This document shows, in pieces, positions 9 to 19,812 of a stretch of 32,000 bases of DNA. Below the pieces are notes generated by a model. It was given only the letters and a program-made list of their open reading frames with translations. It ran no database searches and had not been told where the DNA came from. A program made the translations under genes and the position numbers. The stretch comes from Candidatus Heimdallarchaeota archaeon (lineage in GTDB: Archaea; Asgardarchaeota; Heimdallarchaeia; Heimdallarchaeales; Kariarchaeaceae): assembly GCA_030149205.1 (NCBI GenBank), contig JASBSB010000007.1, positions 1 to 32,000 of the forward strand, given 5' to 3'. The stretch's first letter is position 1. The number at the start of each line of letters is the position of its first letter.

Positions 9-1981
9 GTTTCAATCCCTAAAAGGGTTCTAGCACGATTGCAACATTGCCAAGATAGATCTTTTTGCCATCTGAGATAAGGTGTTTCAATCCCTAAAAG
101 GGTTCTAGCACGATTGCAACAAAATATGACTTATATGTACAAATATTAAATAAGTTCATGTTTCAATCCCTAAAAGGGTTCTAGCACGATTGCAACTGGG
201 CGGAGACCTCAAGCAGATAATTTCACAAGTCCAGTTTCAATCCCTAAAAGGGTTCTAGCACGATTGCAACTCTCTCATAGCTTCTTGACTCAGGACCCTG
301 AAGATCGTTTCAATCCCTAAAAGGGTTCTAGCACGATTGCAACAATTTATAATAAATTTGGCGTTGTTGTGTGATTAGTGTTTCAATCCCTAAAAGGGTT
401 CTAGCACGATTGCAACATAAGCTGACAATAAAGACAGTCGGAGACTGGCAGTAGTTTCAATCCCTAAAAGGGTTCTAGCACGATTGCAACTTCAGGGCAG
501 GGATGATGCCTTGAAGTTTGGGAAATCGTTTCAATCCCTAAAAGGGTTCTAGCACGATTGCAACATAAATTAAAAAAAAAACAAAAATATGGCATTACAA
601 GAGTTTCAATCCCTAAAAGGGTTCTAGCACGATTGCAACATGGCAAAGCACCCGTTGCCTGTGGATTGAAACAACAGTTTCAATCCCTAAAAGGGTTCTA
701 GCACGATTGCAACTGTCGGCCCTCTGTTTCTTTCAGGATCTTGTGCATATGTTTCAATCCCTAAAAGGGTTCTAGCACGATTGCAACCAAAAGCACGAAA
801 GAAACAGAACGGGAAACCAGAGGTAGTTTCAATCCCTAAAAGGGTTCTAGCACGATTGCAACCGTTGAAGTTTCCGAACTTATCAAAGGTGAACCATGTG
901 TTTCAATCCCTAAAAGGGTTCTAGCACGATTGCAACAGCATCCTTCCACCCCTGAACAAAATGAGCAGGGTGTTGTGTTTCAATCCCTAAAAGGGTTCTA
1001 GCACGATTGCAACGCTCCAAGTACAAGCAGGATCTTAAAAAGACCTGGAAGTTTCAATCCCTAAAAGGGTTCTAGCACGATTGCAACAGATGTCATTCTG
1101 GTTTCCTCCCTTTCTCTATCCACTGTTTCAATCCCTAAAAGGGTTCTAGCACGATTGCAACCACCCTGAAAACCGCTGTGTTTCAAGAATTTGACAAACG
1201 TTTCAATCCCTAAAAGGGTTCTAGCACGATTGCAACAACACAGTAAGCGGACTTATACGACAAAATGTACCAACGTTTCAATCCCTAAAAGGGTTCTAGC
1301 ACGATTGCAACCCTAAAAGGGCAGGAGAAATCAAAATGGAAAATCGAAGTTTCAATCCCTAAAAGGGTTCTAGCACGATTGCAACTTTGTGGGGAAACAG
1401 TGGGTGAGGGCAATTGGTTCTAGTTTCAATCCCTAAAAGGGTTCTAGCACGATTGCAACCACAACATCTGCCCAAAGTGTGAAGATGAGGTTTTAACGTT
1501 TCAATCCCTAAAAGGGTTCTAGCACGATTGCAACTTTAGTATTTGATTTCATTCTTTGAATTTCGTCTGTTGGTTTCAATCCCTAAAAGGGTTCTAGCAC
1601 GATTGCAACCAACCACCTGAATTTCCTTCCCCTCTGGGAAGTAATCGTTTCAATCCCTAAAAGGGTTCTAGCACGATTGCAACTATTTAACTTCATCACC
1701 CCCCGCCGAAGGTGTGGCAGGTTTCAATCCCTAAAAGGGTTCTAGCACGATTGCAACGTTCCCTCATCCACTGCTCATGCTTTTCCTGCTCATACGTTTC
1801 AATCCCTAAAAGGGTTCTAGCACGATTGCAACGTTGGTGTGGAAGGATGGAATGCAGTGAGTGCGGCTGGTTTCAATCCCTAAAAGGGTTCTAGCACGAT
1901 TGCAACATGACAGTGCTGAGGTTGGTTTTCCAGTGTTGTACAATGTTTCAATCCCTAAAAGGGTTCTAGCACGATTGCAAC
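9..1981 (-). CRISPR. CRISPR array 1: 27 repeats and 26 complete spacers (36-40 nt) in the window; probably continues beyond the left edge
   Basis: An invariant 37-nt repeat, GTTTCAATCCCTAAAAGGGTTCTAGCACGATTGCAAC on +, runs from 9-45 to 1945-1981. Its minus strand ends in the canonical ATTGAAAC and contains a CCCT-TTT-AGGG stem-loop. The leader lies on the right, so transcription is on minus. Confidence 0.99.
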
Positions 1982-2175: not shown

Positions 2176-2709
2176 TCAAGCAATCTTACAGACCCTCCGG
2201 TACTCACATGGGTAACATCGTCTCTTGTTTTCACAGGGTTTTGGGAGACTTCCATCGTCCATAAGCTGCTCAATCAGATCTCGTGTCTGTAAGACCTCTT
2301 GTTTGTTTTCCTCAGTTATAATAAGTTCAACGTGAAATCCCCCTTCTCTTCTTACCTCAACTGTTGTAACTGGTTTGTTAAAATGAGCCTCAGAGAGTAT
2401 TACATGAGATGCCAGTTGGACAAGATAACCCTTAGGTGTCGGAATGGGAATGCTGTGCTTGTATTCCACAACTCTTAGGTGGTCGGTATATTCAACAACT
2501 AGATCAACCACTGCTTTAAGTCGCAGGGATTGTATTTCAATGTAAAATTCTCTGTATGTTGCCAGTGAGTTTTTGTAGATGTATTGTTTGTCGCTCTTCC
2601 TCTTGTGAAACTCGGTTCCTTTGTCCATGAGATATGTTGGAGGTCTGGGGATCTTTGCAACATCTCTCCAGTAAATTTTCCGAGGGCAGTATAGGTACTG
2701 CCTAAGCAT
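2176..2709 (-). CDS. cas4: Cas4 nuclease (Fe-S, RecB-like); the start may be an in-frame ATA at 2721
   Basis: N-terminal MLRQYLYCPR Cys, VVDLVV..VVEYK nuclease motifs, QLASH, and C-terminal CENKRRCYPCEYRRVC Cys cluster. Lies directly downstream of cas2. Confidence 0.95.
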   Translation of the reverse strand: MLRQYLYCPRKIYWRDVAKIPRPPTYLMDKGTEFHKRKSDKQYIYKNSLATYREFYIEIQSLRLKAVVDLVVEYTDHLRVVEYKHSIPIPTPKGYLVQLASHVILSEAHFNKPVTTVEVRREGGFHVELIITEENKQEVLQTRDLIEQLMDDGSLPKPCENKRRCYPCEYRRVCKIA

Positions 2710-2720: not shown

Positions 2721-3527
2721 TCAGATGAGGACCACCTTTTTGTCTTCAAGGTCGAGAACAACCTTATGGGTCTTGGCTGAACGATTGTAACGTTTTGTCT
2801 TCGGTTGAAAGAGTACAGTTGAACTTGGAGAGAACTCCCTGTCAATAAGCAGTTCAGGTAAGACCTCAGGAGTCACAGTAATCGCAGTTTCAACACATTC
2901 GGCCAGTTTCTTTAGTACTTTTAATTTAGCGGTGCTGGGCAGGGTCTGCCCTTCAGATTGACTTTTTTTGTTTCCATGAGCTGTTTCTTCCATTTGTCCG
3001 GTGTTATCAGTGAGATTTGAGTCCCTCTTTTCTGAATGCTTATTGGTAACATCATCGTTTGCATTGTCTGGGATGAGCCCTGACTGAGGTTCTAATCCTT
3101 GTTCTTCGATTAACCTGTCCCCTGATCCTTTCTTAGATTGTGAATCATCCCCAGCTTCATTTTCTGAATTCTCTAATCCTACATCTGTTGAATGTTTATC
3201 TGAAATCGCTGTATGACCCTCCTGTGTTGCTTGGTCTTCATCACTGGTTTGGTTGGCATCTATGGTCTGACCTTCAATGAGTTCTGAGATTTGAAACTCT
3301 CGTTCTTTCGAAGCGCAGGTTTTACACTGGCGATAGAGGTTCATTAGATTCTCCCCTCCTTTCACAGTCTCAGAGAATTTCAGGCGTATTTCCTTAAGAT
3401 CCGCAGCCTTCAGATTTCCCTTGAAGACACTTTTTTGAACCCGTTGCATACCTTTAGCGATGAGAAAATCAGCGATCTGTGTTCTTGCAGAATTATCAGG
3501 TATGTCATAGGCGATGACCCAGAGCAC
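2721..3527 (-). CDS. cas2: Cas2 with a large acidic low-complexity insertion (268 aa, GTG start)
   Basis: VIAYDIPD...RVQKSVFKG are canonical Cas2 motifs and CKTC lies near aa 68-71. About 115 aa of S/E/D/Q/N/G-rich sequence follow, then a Cas2-like terminal strand (EDKKVVLI). Confidence 0.92.
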   Translation of the reverse strand: MLWVIAYDIPDNSARTQIADFLIAKGMQRVQKSVFKGNLKAADLKEIRLKFSETVKGGENLMNLYRQCKTCASKEREFQISELIEGQTIDANQTSDEDQATQEGHTAISDKHSTDVGLENSENEAGDDSQSKKGSGDRLIEEQGLEPQSGLIPDNANDDVTNKHSEKRDSNLTDNTGQMEETAHGNKKSQSEGQTLPSTAKLKVLKKLAECVETAITVTPEVLPELLIDREFSPSSTVLFQPKTKRYNRSAKTHKVVLDLEDKKVVLI

Positions 3528-3529
3528 TT

Positions 3530-6370
3530 TCAGTTAAACCTCCCTGTGTTGTAAATGTTAGGTGGAATTCTTAGGATTGACACGGATTTAAGTCTCTTCT
3601 TTGATTTGCAGACCTTTGAAAACCGGCTGGCTCCAGCGAAGATGGTTCTTCTAAGCTTGGTATCATCTTCATTTATGCTTTTGAAGAAAAAGGTGAGGAA
3701 TGATTTTTTCTCTCTTTTAGTGTGACTAAACATCTTGTTACTATACATTATGTTATTTGTGACTGGTATTTTTAGGGTTGCCTCAGCATAAATTTTGGAG
3801 GATGCTCGTGTAAAGCAGGCAATGAGTGGCGGAAGGTCTCTGAGAGAATATGTGTCATCTGAGAACTGTTCAACTGAGAACTGTTCGGATGAGAACTCTT
3901 CAGATGAGATCTGCTCAGATGTCCTCTTTGTGACCTCCAGGTTCTTAAGGAATTTTTGAATCTGTGATTTTTTGGATGGAATTGTCCTTTTGTTTGCTTT
4001 TGAGCTCTGAGTCTTCCTCGCCTGTTTTTCATTGTTTAACAGTTTTTTGATTTTATTTAAGAGGTAATAAAATCCGAGGTCTCTAAATGGGATCTCAAGC
4101 TCTTGCTGAATGTCCTTTGCAAGAGTGTTGATATACCCATTTCCATTGATCAGCAGTCCAGACAGCATGATCTCACTATCTGTGATAGACTGGAGAATTG
4201 AGTCACAAAGATTGATTAGTTCGAGATTCTTGAAACTCGAGTACACAGAGTAATAAAATTGGAGATTTTCATCATTGAGAATAGGTTCAGATGAGTGCGA
4301 GTTCTTATGCGGCTTAGGAAATGAATCAATGGTTAGGAGGAGCGTATGAAGGTTTTGTTGGTACCATTTAGTAAAAGCCCTGATATCTACCTCCTGACAT
4401 GTTAAACTAAGAAGTTCTAGCCCCAGTAGAGTCGACTTAAAGAAATCGGTTAGTTTTAAAAATCTATGTAGAACCAATGCTAAATCAGATGAAGAGCTTT
4501 CATCATTTTGGATATTGATTAATTCAGCATATACAGCAAGTTTGGTATCAAATTGAGAAATATTGGTAAGAAGAAGTGAAATGAAGTCTTCACCTATCTT
4601 TTCTATCTCAGGGCGGTCAGAAAACAGTTTACCAATGTTCTTCCAAATTCCTCTAAACATTCTCTTGATTTTCTTCTCATGAATCAGCGGTTTATACAAG
4701 ACCTGGTTAATCCTGGCCTGAGGTGAGCCATGTCCAAGTATCGGAACTATTGATCCAAATCTTCTTCCTTTCCTGATGAGATGTATCGGTAGTCCCTCAT
4801 AGGCGAGCAGTTTGACAGCAGAGGATGACAGGTCAGAAAGCGAGTCGATGAAAAAGACATCATCAAGGTATTTTAGTGAGACATGGTGTATATCTATTGG
4901 AGGAGGTACTGGTTCAGAAAAGTGTTCTTGAGCGAGTTCAGTGTAGTTAGAATTTTCTCCAATAATAAACTTTGCAGCCTCTGAAAGCATGATAGAAAAG
5001 GGTGGGAATTCCTTTTGGAGTGAGATAAGTTCTGTCTGCCCCCCAGGGAAACTAGAGCTTTCATTTGTTGATACCGATGAGATATAACTTCTTAATTGGA
5101 GTTCCTTATCTGAAGAAAATTCTCTGTATTGATTATCAGATTCTTTAATTTGTGAGTCAATGTGTGTTGTGGGAAATTTTCGCTTATCTTGGTCAGGGAG
5201 ATCCTGATTCTTCTCAATTTGGTGGATATCATTAGTCTCTGATGATGCATCAGACACGTTATTTGAAGTTTTATCTGAAATTGATTGATTTATATTTTTA
5301 TTATCTTCCTCAACACAGAGTTCTGGTGAATCCCTTAGTTCCTCAGGAGCATACCCCTTATTGTTGCTCTTTTCCAAATTCAGTTCTTCTTTTTCCTCTG
5401 ATTCCCTGGGGTTTTCTTGTCCATCTCTTTCACGGAGCATTCTTTCAATTGATAATTCTGCCAGCTTAAAGAATCTCTGGTATTGAGACATGTTCTTAAG
5501 TTCCTCATCGCTATAGAAGCGTTGGTTCTCATTTTCAGACAACTTAGTGTCATCACTATGGAACTCTCCCCTGTGTTTCCTGTTTTTTTCTTTATCAATT
5601 AGACTTGCAGCTTCATTTTTCTCATCACCTTTTTTATGAATTATGAAGAGATCTAAGCTTATCCAAGAAAAGTTTTCATTGGCGAATAGTTTAATTCTAT
5701 TCATAATTTTCTCGTGGGATTCATTTCTTGCAAAAAGCTTCAGAATTTCAGTATACTTAATTATGTGCACTTTTTTAGAAGAATCATGATTTATCTGTTT
5801 TGAATCCACATCTTTTTGATTGATTACATCTGTATTCTTCTCTAAATTTGTCTTCTTGTTGATAATGGCTTTTAATATCTCCCTGCGAACATGTATGAGC
5901 TCTTCTGATGAGTTAACAAATGAGTTAGCTGATGATTTGACTGTATCAACTGGTGAGTTAGCCGACGGGTTAACTACTGTATCAGATGATACCATACCGG
6001 AACTTCTTTGTGATATAAGTGGATCATCACTGTTCTGATTCCTTCCATTGTTGTTCTCAACTGTGTTTTCCTTGGTTTCTTCTTCAGAATTTGAATTAAG
6101 ATCCGTTGAAGCGTCTATAATGTTATTTTCAATTATGCTATTTTCAATTAAATTATCTTGTATATTCTTTTCTTCAAGAAAACTGTCTTCAATAAAATTA
6201 TCTTTAATATTCTTATCTTCTCCACTATGATTTACTGATACTGTTTTTTGGACTGTGGAGATTGAACTGAATCTCTCGCGAAGATGCTTTCTGCGTATTT
6301 TTGGCTTGATGTATAGAACCCCTCTACTGGTTCCCATCTGAGAGTCTTGAAGGATGACAAGTGACGTCAT
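3530..6370 (-). CDS. cas1: Giant (946 aa) Cas1-derived protein, predicted catalytically inactive, with a ~470-aa low-complexity insertion
   Basis: aa 1-24 and ~495-560 (VSLKYLDDVFFIDSLSDLSSSAVKLLAYEGLPIHLIRKGRRFGSIVP...QARINQ) resemble the Cas1 N-terminal domain. aa 718-764 align almost without gaps to the helical core of the Cas1 at 7840-8955. It occupies the cas1 position in a cas1-cas2-cas4 operon. Confidence 0.8.
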   Translation of the reverse strand: MTSLVILQDSQMGTSRGVLYIKPKIRRKHLRERFSSISTVQKTVSVNHSGEDKNIKDNFIEDSFLEEKNIQDNLIENSIIENNIIDASTDLNSNSEEETKENTVENNNGRNQNSDDPLISQRSSGMVSSDTVVNPSANSPVDTVKSSANSFVNSSEELIHVRREILKAIINKKTNLEKNTDVINQKDVDSKQINHDSSKKVHIIKYTEILKLFARNESHEKIMNRIKLFANENFSWISLDLFIIHKKGDEKNEAASLIDKEKNRKHRGEFHSDDTKLSENENQRFYSDEELKNMSQYQRFFKLAELSIERMLRERDGQENPRESEEKEELNLEKSNNKGYAPEELRDSPELCVEEDNKNINQSISDKTSNNVSDASSETNDIHQIEKNQDLPDQDKRKFPTTHIDSQIKESDNQYREFSSDKELQLRSYISSVSTNESSSFPGGQTELISLQKEFPPFSIMLSEAAKFIIGENSNYTELAQEHFSEPVPPPIDIHHVSLKYLDDVFFIDSLSDLSSSAVKLLAYEGLPIHLIRKGRRFGSIVPILGHGSPQARINQVLYKPLIHEKKIKRMFRGIWKNIGKLFSDRPEIEKIGEDFISLLLTNISQFDTKLAVYAELINIQNDESSSSDLALVLHRFLKLTDFFKSTLLGLELLSLTCQEVDIRAFTKWYQQNLHTLLLTIDSFPKPHKNSHSSEPILNDENLQFYYSVYSSFKNLELINLCDSILQSITDSEIMLSGLLINGNGYINTLAKDIQQELEIPFRDLGFYYLLNKIKKLLNNEKQARKTQSSKANKRTIPSKKSQIQKFLKNLEVTKRTSEQISSEEFSSEQFSVEQFSDDTYSLRDLPPLIACFTRASSKIYAEATLKIPVTNNIMYSNKMFSHTKREKKSFLTFFFKSINEDDTKLRRTIFAGASRFSKVCKSKKRLKSVSILRIPPNIYNTGRFN
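3860..3919. repeat. Four degenerate 15-nt tandem units (TGAGAACTGTTCxxx) encoding SEQIS/SEEFS/SEQFS/VEQFS
   Basis: Units start at 3860, 3875, 3890 and 3905, read directly from the sequence. Confidence 0.85.
6117..6221. repeat. Seven degenerate 15-nt tandem units encoding pentapeptides (IKDNF IEDSF LEEKN IQDNL IENSI IENNI)
   Basis: 15-nt periodicity, e.g. ATAATGTTATTTTCA / ATTATGCTATTTTCA / ATTAAATTATCTTGT. Confidence 0.75.
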
Positions 6371-7374
6371 TTTAGATTCACCTCATTTGAATGATCAGAT
6401 TTAGTTTGAATCATGGATGGGTGCAAAGGTTTTGAGGACAGTTCTTTAATCTTATGTGGAAACCTTTTCTGGGGTTCCTCATCTTTAGTATCCTCGATTT
6501 TTATCTCTGAGCTCCAGTACCTGAATGATTTTAGGGATACTGCAGCAAATTCATTCTGTTGAATGTGTAGTACCATCCAGTCTCCCTGAAGCCAAACTAT
6601 TGTGCCTTTTAATGTCAGGTTCTGAGAGGCTGTGACTGTCAAAACCTTTGCATCCTTTAGGTCTAAATCTGGGATAAGGTTTTGATGTGAAATCTCCAGG
6701 TTATACCGATGAGCGATCGATAAAAATATTTCACCTATCCTCTCAAACTTCTCTGCCACCTCAGAATTTGAAGTACTCTGAGCAAAGGACTCTCCCTTTT
6801 CATCTGTTGTTAGCCTATCTGGAACATTTAACTCATTAGAGAGATGATGCTCCAAAGCCAATGCAAATGGTAGCCCATCAATCTTTTGAAGTACCAATGC
6901 CTCATTCAACCCCTGTTCTACCAATCTTACGGTTTCTCCCCTGCTTCGTCGGCTTATACCCACCTTGAATCGGGAGTTAAATCTCCCAACATACAGGAGA
7001 TAAGATTGATGACAGGTCTCTCTGTTCTCATAATATCCACAGGGATAAAAATCATGAGTACACCATCCCACTTTTACAAGTTGGGAGTCAGGCTCTAAAT
7101 AATTGCATTTCTTGATCTCTAGGTATCTCTCATCATCATCCAGCTCAATGGATTGGCAATTTGAACAGACGTCCTCCTCTGATGGACCTAAACAGATCTC
7201 ACAGACATGCATTTTGGCCTTTAAGGAGATCCTGCTTCCAATTACAAGAATAACATGAAATGTGCTCTTTGTTTCCTCTAGATAACAGGTTAAAGTTGAA
7301 CGAAATGGAAAGAACGGAGAAAAATAATTCTCTTTCTCTTTTTCTACTGTGTATGAAGTGTCAAAAATTATCAA
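6367..7374 (-). CDS. DUF2797-family Cys-rich protein, putative GIY-YIG/T5orf172-like nuclease
   Basis: CEIC..CSNC and further Cys residues, then YLLYVGRFNSRFKVGISRR..VRLVEQG..A..L...E and C-terminal GTIVWLQGDWMVL, matching my recollection of the DUF2797 pattern. Its stop overlaps the next start (ATGA at 6367-6370). Confidence 0.75.
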   Translation of the reverse strand: MIIFDTSYTVEKEKENYFSPFFPFRSTLTCYLEETKSTFHVILVIGSRISLKAKMHVCEICLGPSEEDVCSNCQSIELDDDERYLEIKKCNYLEPDSQLVKVGWCTHDFYPCGYYENRETCHQSYLLYVGRFNSRFKVGISRRSRGETVRLVEQGLNEALVLQKIDGLPFALALEHHLSNELNVPDRLTTDEKGESFAQSTSNSEVAEKFERIGEIFLSIAHRYNLEISHQNLIPDLDLKDAKVLTVTASQNLTLKGTIVWLQGDWMVLHIQQNEFAAVSLKSFRYWSSEIKIEDTKDEEPQKRFPHKIKELSSKPLHPSMIQTKSDHSNEVNLK

Positions 7375-7747
7375 AGTTCCCGTCCCCCTTTTTTTAACAA
7401 TCTACTCAAGGAACCTTATATATGTTTCTCTCTGCGAAATCTACTTTGCTTTAAAAAACATGAAATACTTTCGGTTTCAGATATTTGCTGTTCAGATACT
7501 CTGCCAGCAGCTCATTTCTAGTATTATAGATAAAAAGATTACCTCAGATCTCCCCATGGTGTAACCTTCATATCATTTGTGAAGTAAATCAATCCCACTC
7601 TGTAAAATTTTACTGATCCACTGAAGAGGAAAGGGATGATATGGTCAAGGGTTGATTCGAATTAGCATAGATATAGGATAAGTGTTTAGAAAATTGAAAA
7701 TATGATAAGCTTAAGTAGCTCGAACACCTTTATCTTAAACATAAGTC

Positions 7748-7787
7748 CTTTCTTCATCAACTTTCTACTTTCTTCATCAACTTTCTA
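7748..7787. repeat. Perfect 2 x 20-nt tandem direct repeat (CTTTCTTCATCAACTTTCTA), putative operator upstream of the second cas1
   Basis: Identical units at 7748-7767 and 7768-7787, followed by TATA-like TTTATTAA at 7804-7811 and ATG at 7840. Confidence 0.85.
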
Positions 7788-7839
7788 TTTTGTTGCGCTA
7801 TCCTTTATTAAGCACCAAACTACCCTTATATACAAGGGG

Positions 7840-8955
7840 ATGGGTTCCATACAAAACCAAACAAAAAATAATCCTGGGGGAGAAGATGTAAAATCAGCTG
7901 AATCGTCATTAACACACGAAATTAACACAGGTAAGTCTGAGAGGATCAACAAATACAAAAACGAAAAATTCCTTTTTGAGGAGGGAAAGATCCTTTCTAT
8001 AACCAGAAGAGGAAAACTTCTTAAGATCTTTGAGACCTTTCCAATTCAATCCTCGAGATTCATCTCAGCTGATCACACCCTCATTCTTCCGCTTAAGTCT
8101 GGATTCAGCAAAGAATCTTTGAACCTTGCACTAGAAAATGGGACAAATATCACGCTTTCAGATAGAAATGCAGGAGTTAAATTGTACAGCAACCAAATTC
8201 AAGAAGAGCTTGATCTTATCAAAACTCAGCAATACAAAGCAATGAGCTCAGAGAACTTCTGTCACTCATTAAGCACCAAGATTCTTCGCCGAAGTCAGGA
8301 GGGAAAGCTTCAGACCATCAGACTCATGATGTATCTCTCTGAGGATCTAGGAGCAGAGGAAGAGCTTAAGAGTCTTGAAAACTCTTTGATAACTCAAAAT
8401 AATCTTATTGAGAACCCTGATCAGAGATGGAGGACATTCCTCTTTAGTGAAGAAGCAAACTTTGCAGCAGTCTACTTCAACATCTTTAACAAATATTGTG
8501 AGCTACATGGCTGGGAATTTACCAAACGATCCCGAAGACCAGCCCAAAACCCAGTCAATGCACTCTTAAACTATGGATACGCGATTCTAAAGGGAAAGGT
8601 AGATCGACTGGTCACTGGCTCGGGTCTGGACCCATTTGTTGGTATGCTACATACCCTTAGACCAGGGAGAGAGTCACTCTCTCTTGATCTGATGGAACCC
8701 TTTAGACAACTCATGGTTGATACAAGTGTCATTGAGATTATTCACTCAAAACTCCTTTCAGAGAAGGACTTTGAACTAAGAAAAGATGAGGTCAGACTTT
8801 CTGATGATGCCAAAGAGACATTGCAGATGCTGATTAAGCTTCGAACCAATTACAATGAAGAGGAATCTCTGATCCTCCCAATGATTGAAACTATCCGAGA
8901 ACTACTGATGGCAGTCATTAGCTATACTGACAGGGGGAATGCAACGGATGAATAA
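7840..8955 (+). CDS. cas1: Cas1 integrase with intact catalytic triad (ORF track starts at 7702; ATG 7840 preferred)
   Basis: EEANFAAVYF, RSRRPAQNPVNALLNYGYAIL, SGLDPFVGMLH and SLSLDLMEPFR motifs show E/H/E present. The upstream in-frame extension is hydrophobic and crosses a 20-nt (non-triplet) repeat. Confidence 0.95.
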   Translation: MGSIQNQTKNNPGGEDVKSAESSLTHEINTGKSERINKYKNEKFLFEEGKILSITRRGKLLKIFETFPIQSSRFISADHTLILPLKSGFSKESLNLALENGTNITLSDRNAGVKLYSNQIQEELDLIKTQQYKAMSSENFCHSLSTKILRRSQEGKLQTIRLMMYLSEDLGAEEELKSLENSLITQNNLIENPDQRWRTFLFSEEANFAAVYFNIFNKYCELHGWEFTKRSRRPAQNPVNALLNYGYAILKGKVDRLVTGSGLDPFVGMLHTLRPGRESLSLDLMEPFRQLMVDTSVIEIIHSKLLSEKDFELRKDEVRLSDDAKETLQMLIKLRTNYNEEESLILPMIETIRELLMAVISYTDRGNATDE

Positions 8956-9098
8956 TTTCAGAATTTCCAATTGTAGAGAGATACCATACTCAAATGTATC
9001 CTCACCGCATTTACTATGTGAAGATCAGAATTTTAGAATTTATTTCTGGTCAGAAGAATTCTCTGTTGAACAAATGTGTGAGAATCAGTCAGATAGTG

Positions 9099-9224
9099 TG
9101 CAATTCCTTTTGTGCTCTCTGGGTCTGAGGACACCAAAAAATCGGAAATTCCACCGTGCTGGTTCCGCGATTTTGAAAATCGAAATGCATAAATACAAGG
9201 CTTCCCTATGGAGAAATAGCCTCG
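9099..9224 (+). promoter_or_regulatory. CRISPR leader of array 2
   Basis: Inverted homologue of 1982-2107. Palindrome CGATTTT-G-AAAATCG at 9168-9182 and TATA-like ATAAATA at 9189-9195, about 30 nt before the first repeat. Confidence 0.92.
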
Positions 9225-12200
9225 GTTGCAATTGAGTTAAAACCCTTGTAGGGATTGAAACAGTAAATGCACAATTGAATGTATCACCATAAAGTTTAAG
9301 TTGCAATTGAGTTAAAACCCTTGTAGGGATTGAAACGTATCGTCATCAATCCCAACATACTCACGTATAATGGTGTTGCAATTGAGTTAAAACCCTTGTA
9401 GGGATTGAAACGAATATAAACATAATCTATTTTCATCTGAAATGAGCTGTTGCAATTGAGTTAAAACCCTTGTAGGGATTGAAACAAACACACCACAGCA
9501 CCTACAGAAATGGGTTTGACGTGGTTGCAATTGAGTTAAAACCCTTGTAGGGATTGAAACATGTTGGCTTATCAACGCTGAAGCTCATCCTACGAAAAGT
9601 TGCAATTGAGTTAAAACCCTTGTAGGGATTGAAACTTGCAAACTGGCTTCAAAATAATTACAAGTACAGCCATGTTGCAATTGAGTTAAAACCCTTGTAG
9701 GGATTGAAACAAATATTTTTCATACTTTGAAAGAAAAGAATCAATTTGTTGCAATTGAGTTAAAACCCTTGTAGGGATTGAAACATCCATATCATATATG
9801 AAGGGAATGACTGCCAGAAACAGTTGCAATTGAGTTAAAACCCTTGTAGGGATTGAAACGTTTGATTAATAACGGAAACCCTAAATGATTTCTCCTCGTT
9901 GCAATTGAGTTAAAACCCTTGTAGGGATTGAAACCAAATTGAAGGTCATGATAAGGACAGAGATCTCTTACGTTGCAATTGAGTTAAAACCCTTGTAGGG
10001 ATTGAAACCGTTTGCGTCGCTCGTTATGGTTATCCCGTTGGTGAGTTGCAATTGAGTTAAAACCCTTGTAGGGATTGAAACAGTACACTGCATTAAGAAA
10101 GTTTATCCCCGATTTTTAGTTGCAATTGAGTTAAAACCCTTGTAGGGATTGAAACGTTCCATGAAAAAACTATATCTTCTGATGCTGTTCCCTTGTTGCA
10201 ATTGAGTTAAAACCCTTGTAGGGATTGAAACATTTGGACTTTTGTTTTTTTAGAATTTTGAAACACAGTTGCAATTGAGTTAAAACCCTTGTAGGGATTG
10301 AAACGTGCTGGGGACTTCATACTGCAGCAATGTTGCCACAGTTGCAATTGAGTTAAAACCCTTGTAGGGATTGAAACGGAGGTTGTACACTCATTTATTG
10401 TGGTTTTCTCAAGTGTTGCAATTGAGTTAAAACCCTTGTAGGGATTGAAACAGGTTTCCACCTATTGAAAGACCAATCTTTGACTTGCGTTGCAATTGAG
10501 TTAAAACCCTTGTAGGGATTGAAACTCCAAGGCAGAGTCGTTCAGACACGTTTACACCGACTCGTTGCAATTGAGTTAAAACCCTTGTAGGGATTGAAAC
10601 GTGAGTTTCAGCGAATTAATGTATTAATCTTAAAATTGTTGCAATTGAGTTAAAACCCTTGTAGGGATTGAAACATCTTAGGTTTTTTGTCAGTAGTAAT
10701 ATTCTTACCCATGTTGCAATTGAGTTAAAACCCTTGTAGGGATTGAAACTAAGCGTCAACTCTCATCTTATATTCTTCTTCATCTTTGGTTGCAATTGAG
10801 TTAAAACCCTTGTAGGGATTGAAACGCAACAACCCTTTGTTGTTGCCCGCACATAACCCCTACGTTGCAATTGAGTTAAAACCCTTGTAGGGATTGAAAC
10901 ATAAGTTCCCTCTTTATTTGTATCTTATCCTCATTCTGTTGCAATTGAGTTAAAACCCTTGTAGGGATTGAAACAATCTCACCCTCCCTTCTCATTCTTT
11001 TTTTTTTTTTTTGTTGCAATTGAGTTAAAACCCTTGTAGGGATTGAAACTCTTGGAGTGTGTCAAACTTAGAAGCCATATACAGAAGTTGCAATTGAGTT
11101 AAAACCCTTGTAGGGATTGAAACTGAGAAACATGAAATGGACTGTTAGAAATCTTTCTGTGTTGCAATTGAGTTAAAACCCTTGTAGGGATTGAAACTAG
11201 GTGGTGTTGCTATATACTCTTATCAAAATTTCTCTGTTGCAATTGAGTTAAAACCCTTGTAGGGATTGAAACAGCTCTGAGAGATACTTTTGAAATTGAT
11301 GCGTTTTGTGGTTGCAATTGAGTTAAAACCCTTGTAGGGATTGAAACCATTACAAGATACTGTAACTGATAATGATAATGTGACGTTGCAATTGAGTTAA
11401 AACCCTTGTAGGGATTGAAACTTAAGACGGGCGAGTTTGTATTTTTTGTAATGCTCCACGTTGCAATTGAGTTAAAACCCTTGTAGGGATTGAAACTTGT
11501 GCGTTATATAATTAGTACGTATCTTCTCACTTGGGTTGCAATTGAGTTAAAACCCTTGTAGGGATTGAAACACAATTGCATGTTTGAGGAGCTGTATCAC
11601 CATAAAAGTTGCAATTGAGTTAAAACCCTTGTAGGGATTGAAACTATACTTAAAATTATGCTTAAACAGATAGCATATAAGAGGTTGCAATTGAGTTAAA
11701 ACCCTTGTAGGGATTGAAACTTTTCTGCTTCATCCTCGTCTGGTGTGGGAATTGGTTCGTTGCAATTGAGTTAAAACCCTTGTAGGGATTGAAACCAAGA
11801 TGATTTCGAGAAAATGATGAATGAAATCATAGAGTTGCAATTGAGTTAAAACCCTTGTAGGGATTGAAACTATTCTTTGAGTAGGACCCTGCAGGGAGAA
11901 GCTTTATTGTTGCAATTGAGTTAAAACCCTTGTAGGGATTGAAACAAACGGATATTCTGAAACACAATCCCTTATACTCCATCGTTGCAATTGAGTTAAA
12001 ACCCTTGTAGGGATTGAAACAGATATATTCCCTCTTGATATATTCTAATCCTGTTATTGTGTTGCAATTGAGTTAAAACCCTTGTAGGGATTGAAACATA
12101 TATATGGGCTTTGATAAAAGAGAGATGGAACGAACGTTGCAATTGAGTTAAAACCCTTGTAGGGATTGAAACCATATCTTCCGTAGTGTGTTTCCCCGTC

Positions 12201-12399
12201 ACTGTAGACGGTTGCAATTGAGTTAAAACCCTTGTAGGGATTGAAACGAAGAGGTACGGTCAGACAAGTCCCATCTGTCGTTCAGCGTTGCAATTGAGCT
12301 AAAACCCTTGTAGGGATTGAAACGAAGAGGTACGGTCAGACAAGTCCCATCTGTCGTTCAGCGTTGCAATTGAGCTAAAACCCTTTTAGGAATTGAAAC
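9225..12399 (+). CRISPR. CRISPR array 2: 43 repeats and 42 spacers (36-40 nt)
   Basis: Repeat GTTGCAATTGAGTTAAAACCCTTGTAGGGATTGAAAC. The last two repeats (12287-12323, 12363-12399) are variants and the last spacer is duplicated, which marks the trailer end. Confidence 0.99.
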
Positions 12400-12525: not shown

Positions 12526-13407
12526 TTATTTTGTTTTTAGTAATTCTGCATCCTCATCATAGCTTAAAATAGATTTTACTAGTTTTTCATATCTATCTAG
12601 TTCTGCATCAGTGATTTTAGCTCTGGTTGTTTGATTAAGCATGGCGAAAGGTGGAGTTGATTTCCATTCAGTACGGTCAATGAGCTTGAAGGACACAGAT
12701 CCAAAATTGTCTTTGATTCCGTCGACTTCACGGTCTGCGTATTTATGTGAGCCTAGAAGTCTTGTGTGTCCATCGAGGATTCCCAATGATTTAAGTATCA
12801 TTGCCTCTTCCTTTTGGGTGGGGTTTGAGATTGACACACTAAATCTTAGTACTCCATTGATGTTGATTAATTCTTTTTGATCATTTCCAAATCCTTTCAC
12901 ATTTTTCACAGAAATTTGTGTTTCGTCAAGAAGAACTGCATCAGAAACCATGACTCTTCCTTTGACTGCATTTGGTTTATCTTTGTTCTGATAATTTTGG
13001 CGACCTGTCTCAATGTATCCAAAGAGCTTGCAGACATCACATGTAACATCCTTGTTAAATCTCATTTCTTTCGTTTTGAAGATAGTCATGTGTTTTTTAG
13101 AAGGTTTAGATGGTTTTTGATTCTCTCTAAGCGGTGAACAGTGCTGAGATGAGCCAATCTCAAGTCTAGATCGAATTAATCCCTTCAGGGTTGACCCTGG
13201 GATGACATATCTGTCTTTGTTATATATCATTGATTTCACTGCTTCTGGTCTTTCAGCTGCGCTTCTTTGATCAACATTAGCTGCGGTTATATTATCAATA
13301 TGCTTTGATTTGGTGTGGATTCTTTCTCCTCCACTTCCGACAAATGTAAATTTGTTGGTTATGACTTCAAAGGTAAATTTCACAAAATTGTTCATGGTGT
13401 TGTGCAT
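12526..13407 (-). CDS. Type III RAMP, Cas7 group (Csm5-like terminal subunit)
   Basis: FTFVGSG, YVIPGSTLKGLIRSRLE, CDVCKLFG and GRVMVSD motifs, with a degenerate G-rich loop (LLGSHK...NFGSVSF). Last gene of the operon. Confidence 0.85.
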   Translation of the reverse strand: MHNTMNNFVKFTFEVITNKFTFVGSGGERIHTKSKHIDNITAANVDQRSAAERPEAVKSMIYNKDRYVIPGSTLKGLIRSRLEIGSSQHCSPLRENQKPSKPSKKHMTIFKTKEMRFNKDVTCDVCKLFGYIETGRQNYQNKDKPNAVKGRVMVSDAVLLDETQISVKNVKGFGNDQKELININGVLRFSVSISNPTQKEEAMILKSLGILDGHTRLLGSHKYADREVDGIKDNFGSVSFKLIDRTEWKSTPPFAMLNQTTRAKITDAELDRYEKLVKSILSYDEDAELLKTK

Positions 13408-13413
13408 TTTAGC

Positions 13414-14193
13414 TCACTCCATTTGTTTGATTAATTTATTCAGATAGTCTTCTGTTTTTTCTGCACCTATCTTTGTTGTTTTAATCTCTGCACCATCAGT
13501 TGTCATGGTATCGGTAAATTTTGTGTTAACGGTTGAGAGAACCTCAACTTTGACACTACCGAATCCTTTTGTTGAGTGTGCACCAATTGTTATTATTCCA
13601 TTGTTAAGGAGTTTTAAGGTGTATGCAAGATATCCTAGACTCAGCTTTTCATTTACAACAGTTATGAATCCTTCAAATTCAGTTCCTTTGGGGACAAATT
13701 CGACCTGTGTAAGCATGTTATTCATGACAGCCCCGTATTTTCTTGAGATAGCAATTGATGTTTTGGTTTGAAGTACTACAGGTTTTTGAGATACAAAATC
13801 GCTAATTCTTGTTGCAGCTCTGAATACTGTTGATCCAAACATCCAGCAAGTTAGACATATTCCCTGATCTTTTTCGGTTTTTCTGAGCACGAGTTTCTTT
13901 TTTAAAGTTGGGTAGTCTGCTTTTGTAAAATCTCTGTCATTTTTGTTTATTTTACGTCCACAGCTGTTCCTATCAAGGGGATCACATGCGTAGTATGAGT
14001 TCGAGCTTCTCAAAACTCTTTCAATATTTGCGCGAATTATTCCTTTCATTGTTGTCCCTGGTATGAATGGATAATCCCCCTCAATATTTTGGATTTTCAT
14101 AACCTGGCTTGCTTTGGTATCAGCAAGGTCTTTTTTTCCACTTCCTACATGTAGCATTGAATCAGCTGTTATTTTGAGTTTGAGGGTGACCAT
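13414..14193 (-). CDS. csm3: Type III RAMP, Cas7/Csm3 family
   Basis: MLHVGSG, PFIPGTTMKGIIR, CLTCWMFGS and IGAHSTKGFGSV G-rich loop. Confidence 0.9.
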   Translation of the reverse strand: MVTLKLKITADSMLHVGSGKKDLADTKASQVMKIQNIEGDYPFIPGTTMKGIIRANIERVLRSSNSYYACDPLDRNSCGRKINKNDRDFTKADYPTLKKKLVLRKTEKDQGICLTCWMFGSTVFRAATRISDFVSQKPVVLQTKTSIAISRKYGAVMNNMLTQVEFVPKGTEFEGFITVVNEKLSLGYLAYTLKLLNNGIITIGAHSTKGFGSVKVEVLSTVNTKFTDTMTTDGAEIKTTKIGAEKTEDYLNKLIKQME

Positions 14194-14212
14194 TTCATTG
14201 TTGTCAAAGTGA

Positions 14213-14965
14213 TTAGCTAGAATTTTTCTTCACCTCAAATTCATTAATGTCATCGTTGAAGGTTACTGTGTATTTTTCTTCTTTTGGTTCAAATTCACCT
14301 TCAACTTTTGTGTAATATGTTGCAGTCAGTTCAGAGAGTTTTAGCACCCCCAATCCCCCGCTTGTTTTACCACCGACAGATATTTGGTTAAGTGCCATTT
14401 TTTTAAGCAGATAAAGGATAATTTTGCTTCTGATGTCATTCTTGTCAGCTGAAAGTTTCTCTTCAAAATTAAATTTGATGTTTTCAACGAACATATCAAA
14501 GAAGTACTCATTTTCTGGTTCTATTACCTCTATTTCATATTTTGCCCCCGGATAAGCCACACCAAGCACACGATGAATTGCGACACCTGGTTTCTGAGAT
14601 GTTGGTACATCATCCTCTGTTGGGATTAGATCAAGTACTTTTACGTGCGATGCCAAGCTGTTACCACCGAATATCCCGCAAACGGGGCAGTAATTGTCTT
14701 CCTTGCACATATTTGATGTATTTGGGGGTTCGCATGAGTTACCGTTACCCACTAATTTTTCTGCTTCCGTTCTAAGAACCCCCTTGAGTGATGTTCCTGG
14801 AATAACAGGTAAATCTATTCCCCCAATATTTTGTTTGAAAACACTGTTTTCACCTATCCCCATTTCCAGAGAGGAACCTCCCACGTGTGTTTGTGTTAAG
14901 TTTTTTATGATTCCCTGTAGTTTGAGAAGAGATTTGAAAGAGTTAAAGTCTTGATAGTCGTTCAT
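14213..14965 (-). CDS. csm3: Type III RAMP, Cas7/Csm3 (Csx7-like) family (ORF track starts at 15031; ATG 14965 preferred)
   Basis: THVGG, PVIPGTSLKGVLRTEAE, CPVCGIFGG and VGGKTSGGLG loop. The ATG is 1 nt after the csm2 stop. Confidence 0.9.
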   Translation of the reverse strand: MNDYQDFNSFKSLLKLQGIIKNLTQTHVGGSSLEMGIGENSVFKQNIGGIDLPVIPGTSLKGVLRTEAEKLVGNGNSCEPPNTSNMCKEDNYCPVCGIFGGNSLASHVKVLDLIPTEDDVPTSQKPGVAIHRVLGVAYPGAKYEIEVIEPENEYFFDMFVENIKFNFEEKLSADKNDIRSKIILYLLKKMALNQISVGGKTSGGLGVLKLSELTATYYTKVEGEFEPKEEKYTVTFNDDINEFEVKKNSS

Positions 14966-14966
14966 T

Positions 14967-15371
14967 TTATCTACTGTACCCTTGTCTCTTTGATTGTGTT
15001 CTGTTTCCAGATTGGCTGACAAATTCTGCATTTAGAGATTTTAGATCTTTTATTTTATCTGTGCTTAATCTGTTTTTCTCTATAATTTCATTTGCCCAGT
15101 TGATATATGTTAACAGTCTGAGTGCGATCTGTGGTTGATCCTTTAATTTTTCCAGTTCCTTGACTAACTCTTTACTGAATGAATGGGTTAGTTTTCCTCC
15201 TGCTGCCTGTCTTGCTGTGAACAGCATTAGTTTCTGCACACCTTCTTTTGTTGGCTCAGATTGTAAAAGATTATATAGATTAGAGATTTGGGATGATCCC
15301 GAACCTTTGTCTGTAATCTTAAACCCTGCCAATTTTGTTCCTAGATCTATGTAGTTTACGTTTTTACTCAT
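14967..15371 (-). CDS. csm2: Type III small subunit (Cas11/Csm2-like)
   Basis: 134 aa, all-helical, with SQISNLYNLL...LMLFTARQ pattern, located between the Cas5-like and Cas7 genes. Confidence 0.75.
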   Translation of the reverse strand: MSKNVNYIDLGTKLAGFKITDKGSGSSQISNLYNLLQSEPTKEGVQKLMLFTARQAAGGKLTHSFSKELVKELEKLKDQPQIALRLLTYINWANEIIEKNRLSTDKIKDLKSLNAEFVSQSGNRTQSKRQGYSR

Positions 15372-16423
15372 TTTTCTACCTCCGGGTTCATTGCCCCGTA
15401 TCCATCATAATCCTTTGTACCGGATCCGATGAGTTGTTGTGTTGGATGTAATTCAATAGTTTTGTCGAGGAGGAGGAGAGAACCTTCTTCGGCGACATAC
15501 GTCAACTCAGTTTGTGTTCCACCACCAGGGTTATTGGATTCCCATCCATTTTCTTTGGAGACTGATCCATTTGATTCTAATATAGAATCAACTTGTATGT
15601 CTCCTATCTTTGTTAATTTTGATTGATTAGTTTCGATAATAGTCTTTGATATTAAGCTCACCTGATTTGATGATACTGTGTTTAGTTTCTTCAGTTCGTC
15701 CACAGAGTTTATTTTCAGGGTTCCAAATCCTTTACTTCGTCCACCTCCGATTTGGATATACTTATCCTTCATAGAATTTATAAATTCCAGAGTTTGTGTA
15801 TTTTCTGTTTCTAGATAGAATGTGAATTGATACCCTGGGATTATAGCCTCGTCAAAATATAGTATCCCTTTTTCGGTGGAGTTAGTAGTTGCCTGAATTC
15901 CTATTCCTGTAAAGTTTGTTGTATAAATTGCAGCCTCAGTAAAGAAGTCACATTCTTTACATTTTAGTCCTTCCCTGTATTTTAATGTAGCAGATTCTTT
16001 GCAAGTAGGGCATGAAGGTACAACTTCAGGATTATCCATTGGAATAATAAAGCCATACTTCTGGTATAATTGATTATTAATGTCTGAAGCTTCTTCTTTT
16101 CTCATGCAACTCTTACATAGCAAATAATTTCGAGGGATTTGGATAAGAATGTCCTGACATTTAGGACAGGTCCTATAGAGGAAGGATACCTTTGCTAATG
16201 GTTTTGCTGAATACAACAAATTATTTGGAACGATACAGGTATTATATTCAGGACATTTATCTTCTATACACCAATCACTGCTATGCTTGCATTCATATCC
16301 AAGAAAGGCGTTAATTAATGCTCCTCTGATTGTAGATCCAGAGATGGTCTTAGAGATTGACCTATCTACCCCAGATTTTATTTTGATGGGCTCAATTTGT
16401 TCTACTGTAACCTTTAGTATCAT
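15368..16423 (-). CDS. RAMP of the Cas5 group (Csx10/Csm4-like) with a Cys-rich insertion
   Basis: ISGSTIRGALI, IGGGRSKGFG G-rich loop and C-terminal GSG...GYG. Contains multiple CxxC pairs. Confidence 0.8.
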   Translation of the reverse strand: MILKVTVEQIEPIKIKSGVDRSISKTISGSTIRGALINAFLGYECKHSSDWCIEDKCPEYNTCIVPNNLLYSAKPLAKVSFLYRTCPKCQDILIQIPRNYLLCKSCMRKEEASDINNQLYQKYGFIIPMDNPEVVPSCPTCKESATLKYREGLKCKECDFFTEAAIYTTNFTGIGIQATTNSTEKGILYFDEAIIPGYQFTFYLETENTQTLEFINSMKDKYIQIGGGRSKGFGTLKINSVDELKKLNTVSSNQVSLISKTIIETNQSKLTKIGDIQVDSILESNGSVSKENGWESNNPGGGTQTELTYVAEEGSLLLLDKTIELHPTQQLIGSGTKDYDGYGAMNPEVEK

Positions 16424-17025
16424 TATTTTCCTTCCTCCTTTAGTAATTTTGAATTTTGTTCGAGAATTGTAAAAGGTACTTTTTTAGCTCCAAACCCATA
16501 ATTTGACCAAAATACTAGTAATGTGTTAAAGAATTTTTTTTCTTCCTCATTTAGGTCATTAAGTTCAAGATGTATCTTCGTGGTTAGCTTTGGTAACTTT
16601 TCTATGAAAAAGAGTGACCCAGTTGCAGCAGACCTTTTCTTTCTATTGAGGGCTATCCTAGGTTGAACAAAACTCTTTTGTTGATTTGTATCAATGTAAG
16701 TTGAATAAGCCTTTATTTTTCCAGATTTTTTTGATCCACCAAATATTGAGCAAACTATGCATTTATCACACATTTTTTTCGTCAAGCTTGTTTTACAGCT
16801 GTTTTCATCTAATCGTATTGCTACAGCCCTCAATGTCCCTTTGATTATGGTGCCAGGTATCCAATATTCTCGATTTATTGAAGATTTTCCATCTTTCGTA
16901 AAGCTGATTCTATTTATTTTTCTAACTTTTAGGTCAGCAATTGATGAACCAGGAGATTCTGCATCCATTGTTCCCCAGCTAGATTTAAATTCTATTTTTA
17001 GATCTATTGTCTCAAATCTGCTCAT
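16423..17025 (-). CDS. Short RAMP, Cas7 group
   Basis: IADLKVRK, WIPGTIIKGTLR, CDKCIVCSIFGG and RIALNRKKRSA motifs; G-rich loop reduced (GFGAKK). Confidence 0.85.
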   Translation of the reverse strand: MSRFETIDLKIEFKSSWGTMDAESPGSSIADLKVRKINRISFTKDGKSSINREYWIPGTIIKGTLRAVAIRLDENSCKTSLTKKMCDKCIVCSIFGGSKKSGKIKAYSTYIDTNQQKSFVQPRIALNRKKRSAATGSLFFIEKLPKLTTKIHLELNDLNEEEKKFFNTLLVFWSNYGFGAKKVPFTILEQNSKLLKEEGK

Positions 17026-18584: not shown

Positions 18585-18717
18585 AGAAAATAACCCTCCT
18601 TATCCATATTATTTTGGGTTTATTCTTAATTTAAAAAGATTTTGCGAACTTATTAGATTTTTTCAATAAAACATTTACTCATTTTATGTTGTTTTTACGG
18701 ATATTTATTTTTGCAAA

Positions 18718-19812
18718 TCAGGATTTTATTGGCACAAGTAAATTTTGATGGATAATTCTAGGGAAGTAGAATCTGCCCAGTCCAGAGGTTCTCGCCCTTC
18801 CTACTCCAGTAAAGAATCCAAGTTTGATGAGATAACTTAGCATCTGGTGGGATGATTCATCCCTGCTGTAGAATGACACATCCCCTATCCACCCCCTGTG
18901 TATCATTTTTTTCCCAGTCTGTACCCTGATGATGTTTCCCTTTGCATACTCAACACTCACATTGTTGACATGGGGTTCAATGGTCTCTGGATCCAGCTGG
19001 GAGTTTGGCAGCCAGTTGTTCCAGATGGTGAGCAGGTTCTTCATGATGTAGCTGGGTTCGGGCCAGAAGAAGTAGCCATCCCCATTTGAGAAGGAGAGAG
19101 GTGTCTGAAAGCGAATCTTCAATGGGTTTTCAAGGGTGAGGTGGGTGATTGGAGAGGTATCCAGCGGGTGAATACCATGTGGTTCCAATCTCAGTGCATC
19201 CTTATCTGCCTCCCAATCAATGCTCATTATCTGGTTGACTGCATTGAGTATTTTGTCATCGGTGGTTGCGATATCAAAGTGAACACTGTCTCCCACATTG
19301 AGCATTGTGTCTCTTGGCGTTCGTCGGTTATTTCTGGTTCCTGTATTTCTACGATTTGTAAGTCTGCGGTTCCTTTGATTCTGAGGGTTATCCCCTGTAT
19401 TTAGAGTTGAACTGGCAGTAGGTTGGGTGGGTTCAGCCTCTCCAAATGTGCGTCCCATGGTTGAGAGGATACTGTTAATTGATGTTTTATCATCGGGGGG
19501 TGTAGGGTGAGAAGTTTCCCCATTCTCAGTGGATTCAGCTGAAGTATTATCTTTTTTATCTTGAATCTTGGTTTCATCACTGGGCCCATCTATGGTGAAC
19601 TGTGAGAGAGCGAATCGCTTGATCATGTCACTATCATGAATCTCAGTTGCCAGGTGTTTGTCTGTCTCTTTCAGTGCCTTGAAGAACATCCCTCGTACCA
19701 ATCCCCCAGAGAATCGTGGTATTGTACCAGGAGATGTCGTTTTAAAAGAGAGCCTATAAAACTTGACCTCCATTGTATCTGATGATTCATTGGACTGAAT
19801 AAACCTTATCAC
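18718..19812 (-). CDS. cas6: Cas6 endoribonuclease with a ~90-aa disordered insertion (alternative start ATG 19773)
   Basis: FSGGLVRGMFFKAL..H, RFALS, IRFQTPLSF and C-terminal LGFFTGVGRARTSGLG G-rich loop. Confidence 0.93.
   Translation of the reverse strand: MIRFIQSNESSDTMEVKFYRLSFKTTSPGTIPRFSGGLVRGMFFKALKETDKHLATEIHDSDMIKRFALSQFTIDGPSDETKIQDKKDNTSAESTENGETSHPTPPDDKTSINSILSTMGRTFGEAEPTQPTASSTLNTGDNPQNQRNRRLTNRRNTGTRNNRRTPRDTMLNVGDSVHFDIATTDDKILNAVNQIMSIDWEADKDALRLEPHGIHPLDTSPITHLTLENPLKIRFQTPLSFSNGDGYFFWPEPSYIMKNLLTIWNNWLPNSQLDPETIEPHVNNVSVEYAKGNIIRVQTGKKMIHRGWIGDVSFYSRDESSHQMLSYLIKLGFFTGVGRARTSGLGRFYFPRIIHQNLLVPIKS

Follow-up and report, generated by a model that had tools for sequence, protein, structure and literature searches.

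A protein of 946 amino acids (aa), encoded in a DNA segment from a Candidatus Heimdallarchaeota archaeon, is very probably derived from Cas1, of the adaptation machinery of CRISPR (short palindromic repeats, clustered and regularly interspaced) systems, and very probably devoid of the canonical Cas1 catalytic site. The segment analyzed, referred to here as the window, comprises 32,000 nt (positions 1-32,000 of contig JASBSB010000007.1) of a 3.3 Mb genome assembly in 12 contigs, with a G+C content of about 38%. The protein, P0001, is specified by the minus strand at 3530..6370 and belongs to a family that we call X. We propose, with a probability of about 0.58, that X is a hard-wired non-catalytic Cas1 protomer, the fixed partner of an intact Cas1 encoded next to it, and that the giant size of P0001 is lineage-specific bloat.

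The X gene is a single open reading frame (ORF) with no internal stop codon. It lies between a DUF2797 gene and cas2-cas4 in a closely packed minus-strand operon with the order DUF2797, X, cas2, cas4, in agreement with a preliminary description of the window, which had placed it in the cas1 slot of a cas operon. The stop codon of the DUF2797 gene, the first of the operon (6367..7374, minus strand; Pfam DUF2797 6.6e-9, Atlas 0.94), overlaps the start of X by 4 bases; cas2 (2721..3527, minus strand) begins 2 bases past the X stop codon and is followed by cas4 (2176..2709, minus strand; TIGR00372 3.3e-27, Pfam Cas4). With CRISPR arrays on both sides, X thus has the genomic setting that marks a Cas1, beside cas2 and a CRISPR array. 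The intact cas1 is transcribed divergently from the operon (7702..8955, plus strand); its product matches Pfam Cas1 at 6e-50, at profile positions 43-277 only, and is the predicted catalytic partner of X. The X operon and the divergent cas1 together sit between two CRISPR arrays in inverted orientation.

Relatives of P0001 were hard to find. A word-indexed homologue search returned only P0001 itself or a few relatives, a related-loci search with the family member P0008 returned only its own contig, and two metagenome scans for X gave no match and one new relative, respectively. An exhaustive search among 1.84 billion representatives with aa 470-946 matched five other clusters and thereby added three, of metagenomic origin, to the family; later searches added two more. 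In a six-frame search of related genomes, each of the three other genomes of the genus proved to have an ORF of this kind, 305-334 aa long and flanked by DUF2797 and cas2-cas4. The family now comprises eight full-length proteins of 304-946 aa (304-464 aa for the members other than P0001) and one frameshifted copy (locus L064). Among 400 sampled genomes of the phylum, many of them incomplete, X was seen only in this genus (g1, in 4 of 4 genomes), and the metagenomic members come from lineages outside the sample. The homologue and neighbourhood analysis suggested in the preliminary description has thus yielded a family with a constant five-gene context.

P0001 alone falls below the threshold of every Cas1 model and has no Pfam, NCBIfam or PDB sequence match. 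The preliminary description had aligned the stretch LINLCDSILQSITDSEIMLSGL (aa 718-739) with the other Cas1 of the window; the position was correct, with BLASTP recovering aa 718-765 against residues 288-337, but at E = 3.3 the pairwise match is not above chance, and significance therefore comes from the profiles of the relatives. A profile of six short homologues, with P0001 excluded, matches P0001 in four collinear pieces: aa 1-58 (E = 2e-7), about 493-629 (2e-16), about 708-766 (6e-11) and about 879-936 (3e-6). Pfam Cas1 (PF01867) is matched by 4 of 7 X members, at best with 6e-7 (26.2 bits for P0010, the cut-off being 22.3), and the X family profile matches the Aquifex Cas1 2yzs at 2.3e-4. 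Compared by hhalign with 25 Cas1 proteins of the same archaeal order, the family aligned at 97.8% (E = 7e-13), with aa 492-901 on Cas1 29-301. The best Cas1 matches of the X profile are the Cas1 proteins of DUF2797 modules in sister genera of the order, where DUF2797, an intact cas1 (with GFLH and DLIEEFR motifs), cas2 and cas4 occur in the same order. This synteny provides independent support for X as a Cas1, in the cas1 slot.

The predicted fold agrees with the profiles. An AlphaFold2 (AF2) model of the whole of P0001 has confident blocks at aa 1-30, 490-580, 720-790 and 885-940, which coincide with the conserved parts; with aa 470-946 as a single sequence, mean pLDDT (predicted local distance difference test) was only 37.8 and the model useless. 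The 50 best Foldseek matches of the whole-protein model are all Cas1 or casposase, and the model has the two domains of the Cas1 fold, N-terminal beta and C-terminal helical. VIA-align superposed it on Synechocystis Cas1 (7cr6_C) with Z = 19.9 and a root mean square deviation of 3.8 Å over 284 residues, pairing 1-938 of the model with 1-325 of the chain. An alignment of this span means that, in the model, the first three strands do pack with a domain that resumes 455 residues later. The Cas1 descent of X put forward in the preliminary description is thus borne out by profile and fold, the comparisons it had suggested. In a Cas1 tree, X could not be placed among the Cas1 clades, owing to its long branch.

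The metal-binding catalytic residues typical of Cas1 (Glu, His and an Asp/Glu pair) are not preserved as a set in X. We compared the eight X proteins column by column, with numbers taken from the intact Cas1 of locus L005, in the same order. The invariant H234 falls inside a 6-residue deletion in 7 of the 8, P0001 included, and is replaced by Leu in the remaining one; no conserved His was found elsewhere near the site in the family alignment, and the His of a GLLPHG motif occurs in 3/8 members, P0001 not among them. The second acidic residue, E249, is represented by Q, I, I, V, S, S, N and N (Q756 in P0001), and the invariant R193 is lost in all eight (H692 in P0001). The basic residue after Phe, R/K252, has become Glu in six proteins and Ala in two (E759 in P0001). 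D246 is still Asp in five and Ser in three (D753 in P0001), and the column of the first Glu, E169, is acidic in 5/8 and poorly aligned (D662 in P0001). Loss of canonical Cas1 chemistry across the family is thus well supported by the alignment. The preliminary description had read much of this correctly: the metal-binding Glu is indeed replaced by Gln756, within DIQQ, and the active-site loop is deleted. Its reading of the catalytic His as Asn748 stands in part; GYIN does end at N748, but in our alignments the His itself falls in the deletion and does not align with that residue.

P0001 aligns with its relatives from end to end apart from three insertions. Its first 35 residues (6266..6370, all on the minus strand) form three beta strands (aa 2-6, 10-15 and 18-23; pLDDT 91-94), the first ones of the N-terminal domain of Cas1, and align to the canonical Cas1 N-terminus and to positions 1-58 of the family profile. 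Insertion 1 (aa 36-490; 4901..6265), of polar low-complexity sequence with helical islands, is a gap in all relatives, has a pLDDT mostly below 50 and cuts this hairpin off from the rest of the domain by 455 residues. The domain resumes, together with a linker, at aa 491-585 (4616..4900; pLDDT 87-94), the part that matches Cas1 best, with the IP-x-hydrophobic and P...HGS..R..Q motifs and the invariant residues P528, G535, P543, H547, G548, R553 and Q556. A poorly conserved helical region follows (aa 586-715; 4226..4615; low alignment confidence, pLDDT 34-60), containing D662 in the column of the first catalytic Glu, a degraded R-x-x-x-P motif (H692...P696) and the second insertion, within about 590-715. 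At aa 716-775 (4046..4225; pLDDT 82-95) are the core helices, together with the degenerate loop of the active site (SGLLINGNGYIN...TLAKDIQQELEIPFR); the S/K-rich insertion 3 spans aa 776-884 (3719..4045; a gap in relatives), and aa 885-946 (3533..3718; profile positions 269-323, pLDDT 84-95) form the C-terminal helices and a tail common to X and canonical Cas1. A split of the N-terminal beta domain by some 470 residues of polar sequence had been described before; the length is in fact 455, 60% of them N/S/E/D/K/Q/T, and the insertions at about 590-715 and 776-884 had been missed.

More than half of P0001 is low-complexity sequence. The insertions consist to 58-60% of N/S/E/D/K/Q/T (in insertion 1, S 13%, E 12%, N 11% and K 9%), and Tandem Repeats Finder detected 15-nt, pentapeptide-encoding repeats at 6120-6220 in insertion 1 and at 3860-3921 in insertion 3. 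In a second population, from the hydrothermal-vent metagenome of another study, one more 15-nt copy is present in frame after 3874, within the 3860-3921 repeat, which is direct evidence that slippage lengthens and shortens the insertions. They have no Atlas look-alike, no paralogous segment in the genome and no Pfam domain. In P0011 and P0016, a different insertion occupies another loop. As the relatives demonstrate, about 300 residues suffice for the family, and the giant size is peculiar to the P0001 lineage. We also considered genome-wide inflation by low-complexity sequence as the cause of this size and rejected it: of the 2346 ORFs of at least 150 aa, no more than 20 have 100 or more such residues. 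P0001 ranks fifth among these ORFs, and most of the top-ranked ones inspected are coiled-coil-like proteins or proteins with charged tails or linkers, an Hsp90 among them. We take the insertions to be tolerated low-complexity bloat in surface loops and not a new domain, with slippage of 15-nt repeats as at least part of their origin, although the helical islands and long disordered stretches might add a function of their own, such as recruitment or regulation.

Despite the lost catalytic residues, X is maintained by purifying selection, a conclusion in which we have high confidence. Between P0011 and P0016, the Nei-Gojobori ratio of nonsynonymous to synonymous substitution rates (dN/dS) is 0.23 for X over 423 codons, compared with 0.24, 0.14 and 0.10, respectively, for cas2, cas4 and DUF2797 of the same pair of loci. 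The frameshifted copy L064 (931-1915) is 86% identical to P0013; loss of 2 nt in the linker that follows the first hairpin splits it into two frames, yet dN/dS against P0013 is 0.23 in the C-terminal part and 0.04 in the N-terminal part (281 and 50 codons, respectively). Since both halves are under purifying selection, the break is either very recent or an assembly error. dS is saturated between P0008 and P0012. A look-up of RNA data sets listed none that holds this stretch. For the P0001 copy itself, the evidence of selection is a third-position bias and an in-frame indel, the dN/dS values being those of close family pairs: contigs of the hydrothermal-vent metagenome cover pieces of P0001 at about 95% identity, insertion 1 included (4959-5465 and 5593-5938), and among the differences listed inside the ORF, 6 of 8 are at third codon positions, the indel being the in-frame 15-nt copy described above. 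The preliminary description's maintained pseudo-enzyme is thus upheld by a dN/dS of 0.23 in two close pairs and by a second population that retains both the gene and its insertions.

Every X locus that reaches far enough upstream contains the same five genes, with cas1 on the strand opposite to DUF2797-X-cas2-cas4. In the neighbouring Cas1 proteins, the four catalytic residues (E, H, D and E) are all intact. These proteins are otherwise reduced: the Pfam match begins at profile position 43-71, and the IPV-F and HGS motifs of the N-terminal domain and the C-terminal tail are missing. X retains IPV-F, HGS and the tail, precisely the features that the partner has lost. X and the partner are each monophyletic, with long stems (2.07 changes per column for X, 1.39 for the partner), and the internal topologies of their trees agree; it should be noted that co-occurrence and congruent trees indicate co-inheritance, not contact. 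The preliminary description had seen the other Cas1 of the window, but its constancy, its role as a co-diverging partner and the membership of DUF2797 in the module had escaped it. Owing to its annotated start, the window's partner Cas1 has about 45-85 extra N-terminal residues (7702-7965), hydrophobic, unconserved and without counterpart in the orthologues of 304-317 aa, and the true start is probably later than 7702, for example at Met46.

Structure prediction is consistent with a physical pairing. In a complex model of the short X protein P0010 with its own partner, computed with our own alignments, ipSAE (interaction prediction score from aligned errors) was 0.84 in three runs, the best of three controls giving 0.00; among solved complexes, 58 of 80 attain this mark, as do 2 of 110 mismatched pairs, counts that are rough because of the use of our own alignments. 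The runs share at least 98% of their contacts, the pLDDT of the partner chain is at least 82, and the predicted interface involves both N-terminal domains and, on the X side, the HGS..R..Q segment plus the GLLP loop. We consider the odds slightly in favour of a heterodimer between X and the neighbouring intact Cas1.

We propose the following scheme. X would descend from the cas1 gene of the DUF2797-cas1-cas2-cas4 adaptation operon common in this archaeal order. By its sequence it has kept the fold in two domains, together with the N-terminal domain for dimerisation and the C-terminal tail, and has lost the His loop, the second metal-binding acidic residue and the invariant Arg. The complementary losses in X and its partner suggest that the two form a fixed heterodimer, with the chemistry left to the partner. 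This heterodimer would take the place of the usual Cas1 homodimer in the Cas1-Cas2(-Cas4) spacer integrase; cleavage and joining would fall to the partner, and X would hold the dimer, the DNA or Cas2 by supplying the dimer interface and the tail. The asymmetry of a Cas1 dimer with one active protomer would thereby be written into two genes. The scaffold part of the scaffold or regulator role suggested in the preliminary description fits both this predicted heterodimer and the constant pairing with an intact Cas1, and the word 'dead' used there describes what can be read from the sequence. Rather more tentatively, short of an even chance, the asymmetric homodimer may have been split into an obligate heterodimer of a catalytic Cas1 unable to dimerise or dock alone and a pseudo-Cas1, with DUF2797 as a further component of adaptation.

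Several observations weigh against this scheme. Solved structures of Cas1 homodimers exist, and the success of the complex model may reflect likeness to them rather than binding; both the AF2 and the complex models were fed alignments containing canonical Cas1 and hence lean toward Cas1 geometry. Invariant X residues are only weakly enriched at the predicted interface (7/26, odds ratio 2.7, p = 0.04), and another complete Cas1, encoded on contig C4 of the genome, means that the neighbouring protein is not the sole possible partner. Acidic residues survive near the old site (D753 in 5/8, an invariant E757 and D662 at a poorly aligned column), and insertion 1 has hydrophobic helical stretches that could form a small folded domain despite the low pLDDT.

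The alternative that deserves most attention, though we consider it rather unlikely, is that X is a maintained pseudoenzyme acting apart from the neighbouring Cas1, as a homodimeric DNA-binding scaffold, as a regulator of adaptation or of the operon, or as a partner of Cas2, Cas4 or DUF2797 only. X is, after all, co-transcribed with DUF2797, cas2 and cas4 and not with the intact cas1; its retained dimerisation domain would support homodimers equally well, and the evidence on X reaches selection, not function. On the other hand, a neighbouring Cas1 stripped of its N-domain motifs and tail is hard to square with an ordinary homodimer, the two genes co-occur strictly and have agreeing trees, and the heterodimer is predicted at 0.84 against 0.00 for the best of three controls, possibly reflecting likeness to solved Cas1 dimers. 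The surviving acidic residues (D753, E757, E759 and D662) also raise the idea that X is still an active integrase or nuclease with unconventional residues. This is improbable given that the His loop is deleted with no conserved His in its place (the GLLPHG His being confined to 3/8 members), that the second metal ligand and the invariant Arg are gone from 8/8, and that the position of D753 is Ser in 3/8.

Two further explanations were weighed. One holds that it is a functionless, decaying cas1 relic, its open frame and size being accidents of repeat expansion; P0001 on its own is without a match in Pfam, NCBIfam or the PDB sequences, low-complexity stretches make up more than half of it, and L064 has a 2-nt frameshift. 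An open frame of 2.8 kb is not expected by chance at about 38% G+C, however, and eight full-length homologues align end to end in conserved synteny, with a dN/dS of about 0.23 and a second population that keeps both the frame and an indel in frame, so that we regard such a relic as highly improbable. The other, that the resemblance to Cas1 is a coincidence and X an unrelated helical protein, could appeal to the BLASTP E-value of 3.3 against the window Cas1; it is scarcely credible in view of the profile, Pfam, PDB and fold evidence, which all indicate Cas1 over both domains, and of the occupancy of the cas1 slot of a conserved operon. The fixed non-catalytic partner of the neighbouring Cas1 remains the reading that we prefer.

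Two other proteins of the operon share features across the order. In at least 11 loci, the gene immediately upstream of cas1 or X is DUF2797, whose product combines a zinc ribbon with a conserved GRF...KVGIS...EQGLNEA core; the gene looks like an undescribed adaptation-module gene, the open-access literature that we found tying DUF2797 to other things than CRISPR. The Cas2 of the window (268 aa; Pfam Cas2 9.6e-12, TIGR01573 1.8e-11) consists of the Cas2 core, a long linker of about 150 polar low-complexity residues and a conserved basic C-terminal tail ending in a hydrophobic strand. All DUF2797 modules have this basic tail in their Cas2, a protein of 140-238 aa elsewhere, the window Cas2 being inflated like X. 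Two genomes of the same genus also carry, elsewhere, a second DUF2797-cas1 locus with an intact Cas1 (G001:C69, L054, and G002:C132, L041); the X module is thus a diverged paralogous copy and not the sole one.

The arrays that flank the module have 37-nt repeats. Array A (about 307..1981, minus strand) is preceded by a leader at about 1982-2175, and array B (9225..12399, plus strand), with a variant of the repeat, by one at about 8956-9224. The leader regions (1945-2175 and 8956-9261) are inverted near-copies at their repeat-proximal ends, and the 37-nt repeat variants of the two arrays differ. A source-run contig folds back between 2100 and 9107, the 7.2-kb module thus being bounded by inverted repeats. 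In the related population, the contig stops at the first repeat of the array. Beyond array B, 12526..19812 (minus strand) contains a type III effector set of five RAMP proteins, a short Cas10 and one small unassigned ORF, together with cas6. The Cas10 (17022-18512; 496 aa) matches the second palm domain only and may be without the HD domain and other parts. A gene for a leucine-rich-repeat protein (19900-20988) adjoins cas6, and 25094-26800 contains a DUF4411 (PIN-like) gene and, after it, one for an M78/IrrE-type peptidase, possibly a toxin-antitoxin-like or defence pair. The genome also encodes an actin homologue (contig C2, 232008-233114; Pfam Actin, 445 bits), which, with the leucine-rich-repeat protein, points to an Asgard archaeon as host.

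For inactive, non-catalytic, paralogous or heterodimeric Cas1, the open-access full text that we searched gives engineered mutants and silent protomers of homodimers only, and the main text of the 2025 CRISPR-Cas classification contains no such protein, in agreement with the preliminary description, which knew of no family like this one. Since a single gene encodes both subunits, the contribution of the silent Cas1 subunit is difficult to investigate. If our proposal is correct, the two roles reside here in separate, complementary genes, each of which could be mutated and assayed alone, and X would be, to our knowledge, the first pseudoenzyme described in a CRISPR adaptation module, with DUF2797 added as a candidate adaptation gene. 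There is also a point for annotation, in that standard Cas1 models miss P0001, while 4 of 7 X members still match Pfam Cas1.

Compared with canonical Cas1 (PF01867; Synechocystis type I-D 7CR6, A. fulgidus 4N06 and Aquifex 2YZS), X has the same two-domain fold over the whole chain and shares the N-terminal hairpin, IPV-F, P...HGS..R..Q, RPP, the end of the GL-x-P helix and the C-terminal helices; its gene likewise lies near cas2, cas4 and CRISPR arrays with 37-nt repeats. Unlike canonical Cas1, it is without the His loop, the second metal ligand and the invariant Arg, and all members have an extra helix after the first hairpin, to which P0001 adds about 690 extra residues. Casposases (e.g. 6OPM) have the same fold as X (Z = 17.7), but are active, carry a helix-turn-helix and sit in transposon-like elements with PolB, none of which applies to X.

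The DUF2797-cas1-cas2-cas4 modules of the sister genera (L005, L006, L014, L017, L019, L020, L041-L043 and L054) resemble the X modules in gene order, in the basic tail of Cas2 and in the presence of DUF2797, but their Cas1 is intact, at 323-344 aa. They also differ from the X modules in that, in the one case checked (genome G020), none of four Cas1 matches lies beside the sister-type module. Catalysis in solved integrases is confined to two of the four Cas1 subunits, and the non-catalytic subunit contacts DNA, Cas4 or the repeat (PMC7969031; 10.1101/2022.05.30.494039). X would resemble the silent protomer of these Cas1-Cas2 and Cas4-Cas1-Cas2 complexes in its proposed structural role and in a predicted interface through the N-terminal domains, as in Cas1 dimers. 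Known protomers, however, come from one gene and either could be catalytic, whereas with X the division of labour would be fixed in two diverged paralogues.

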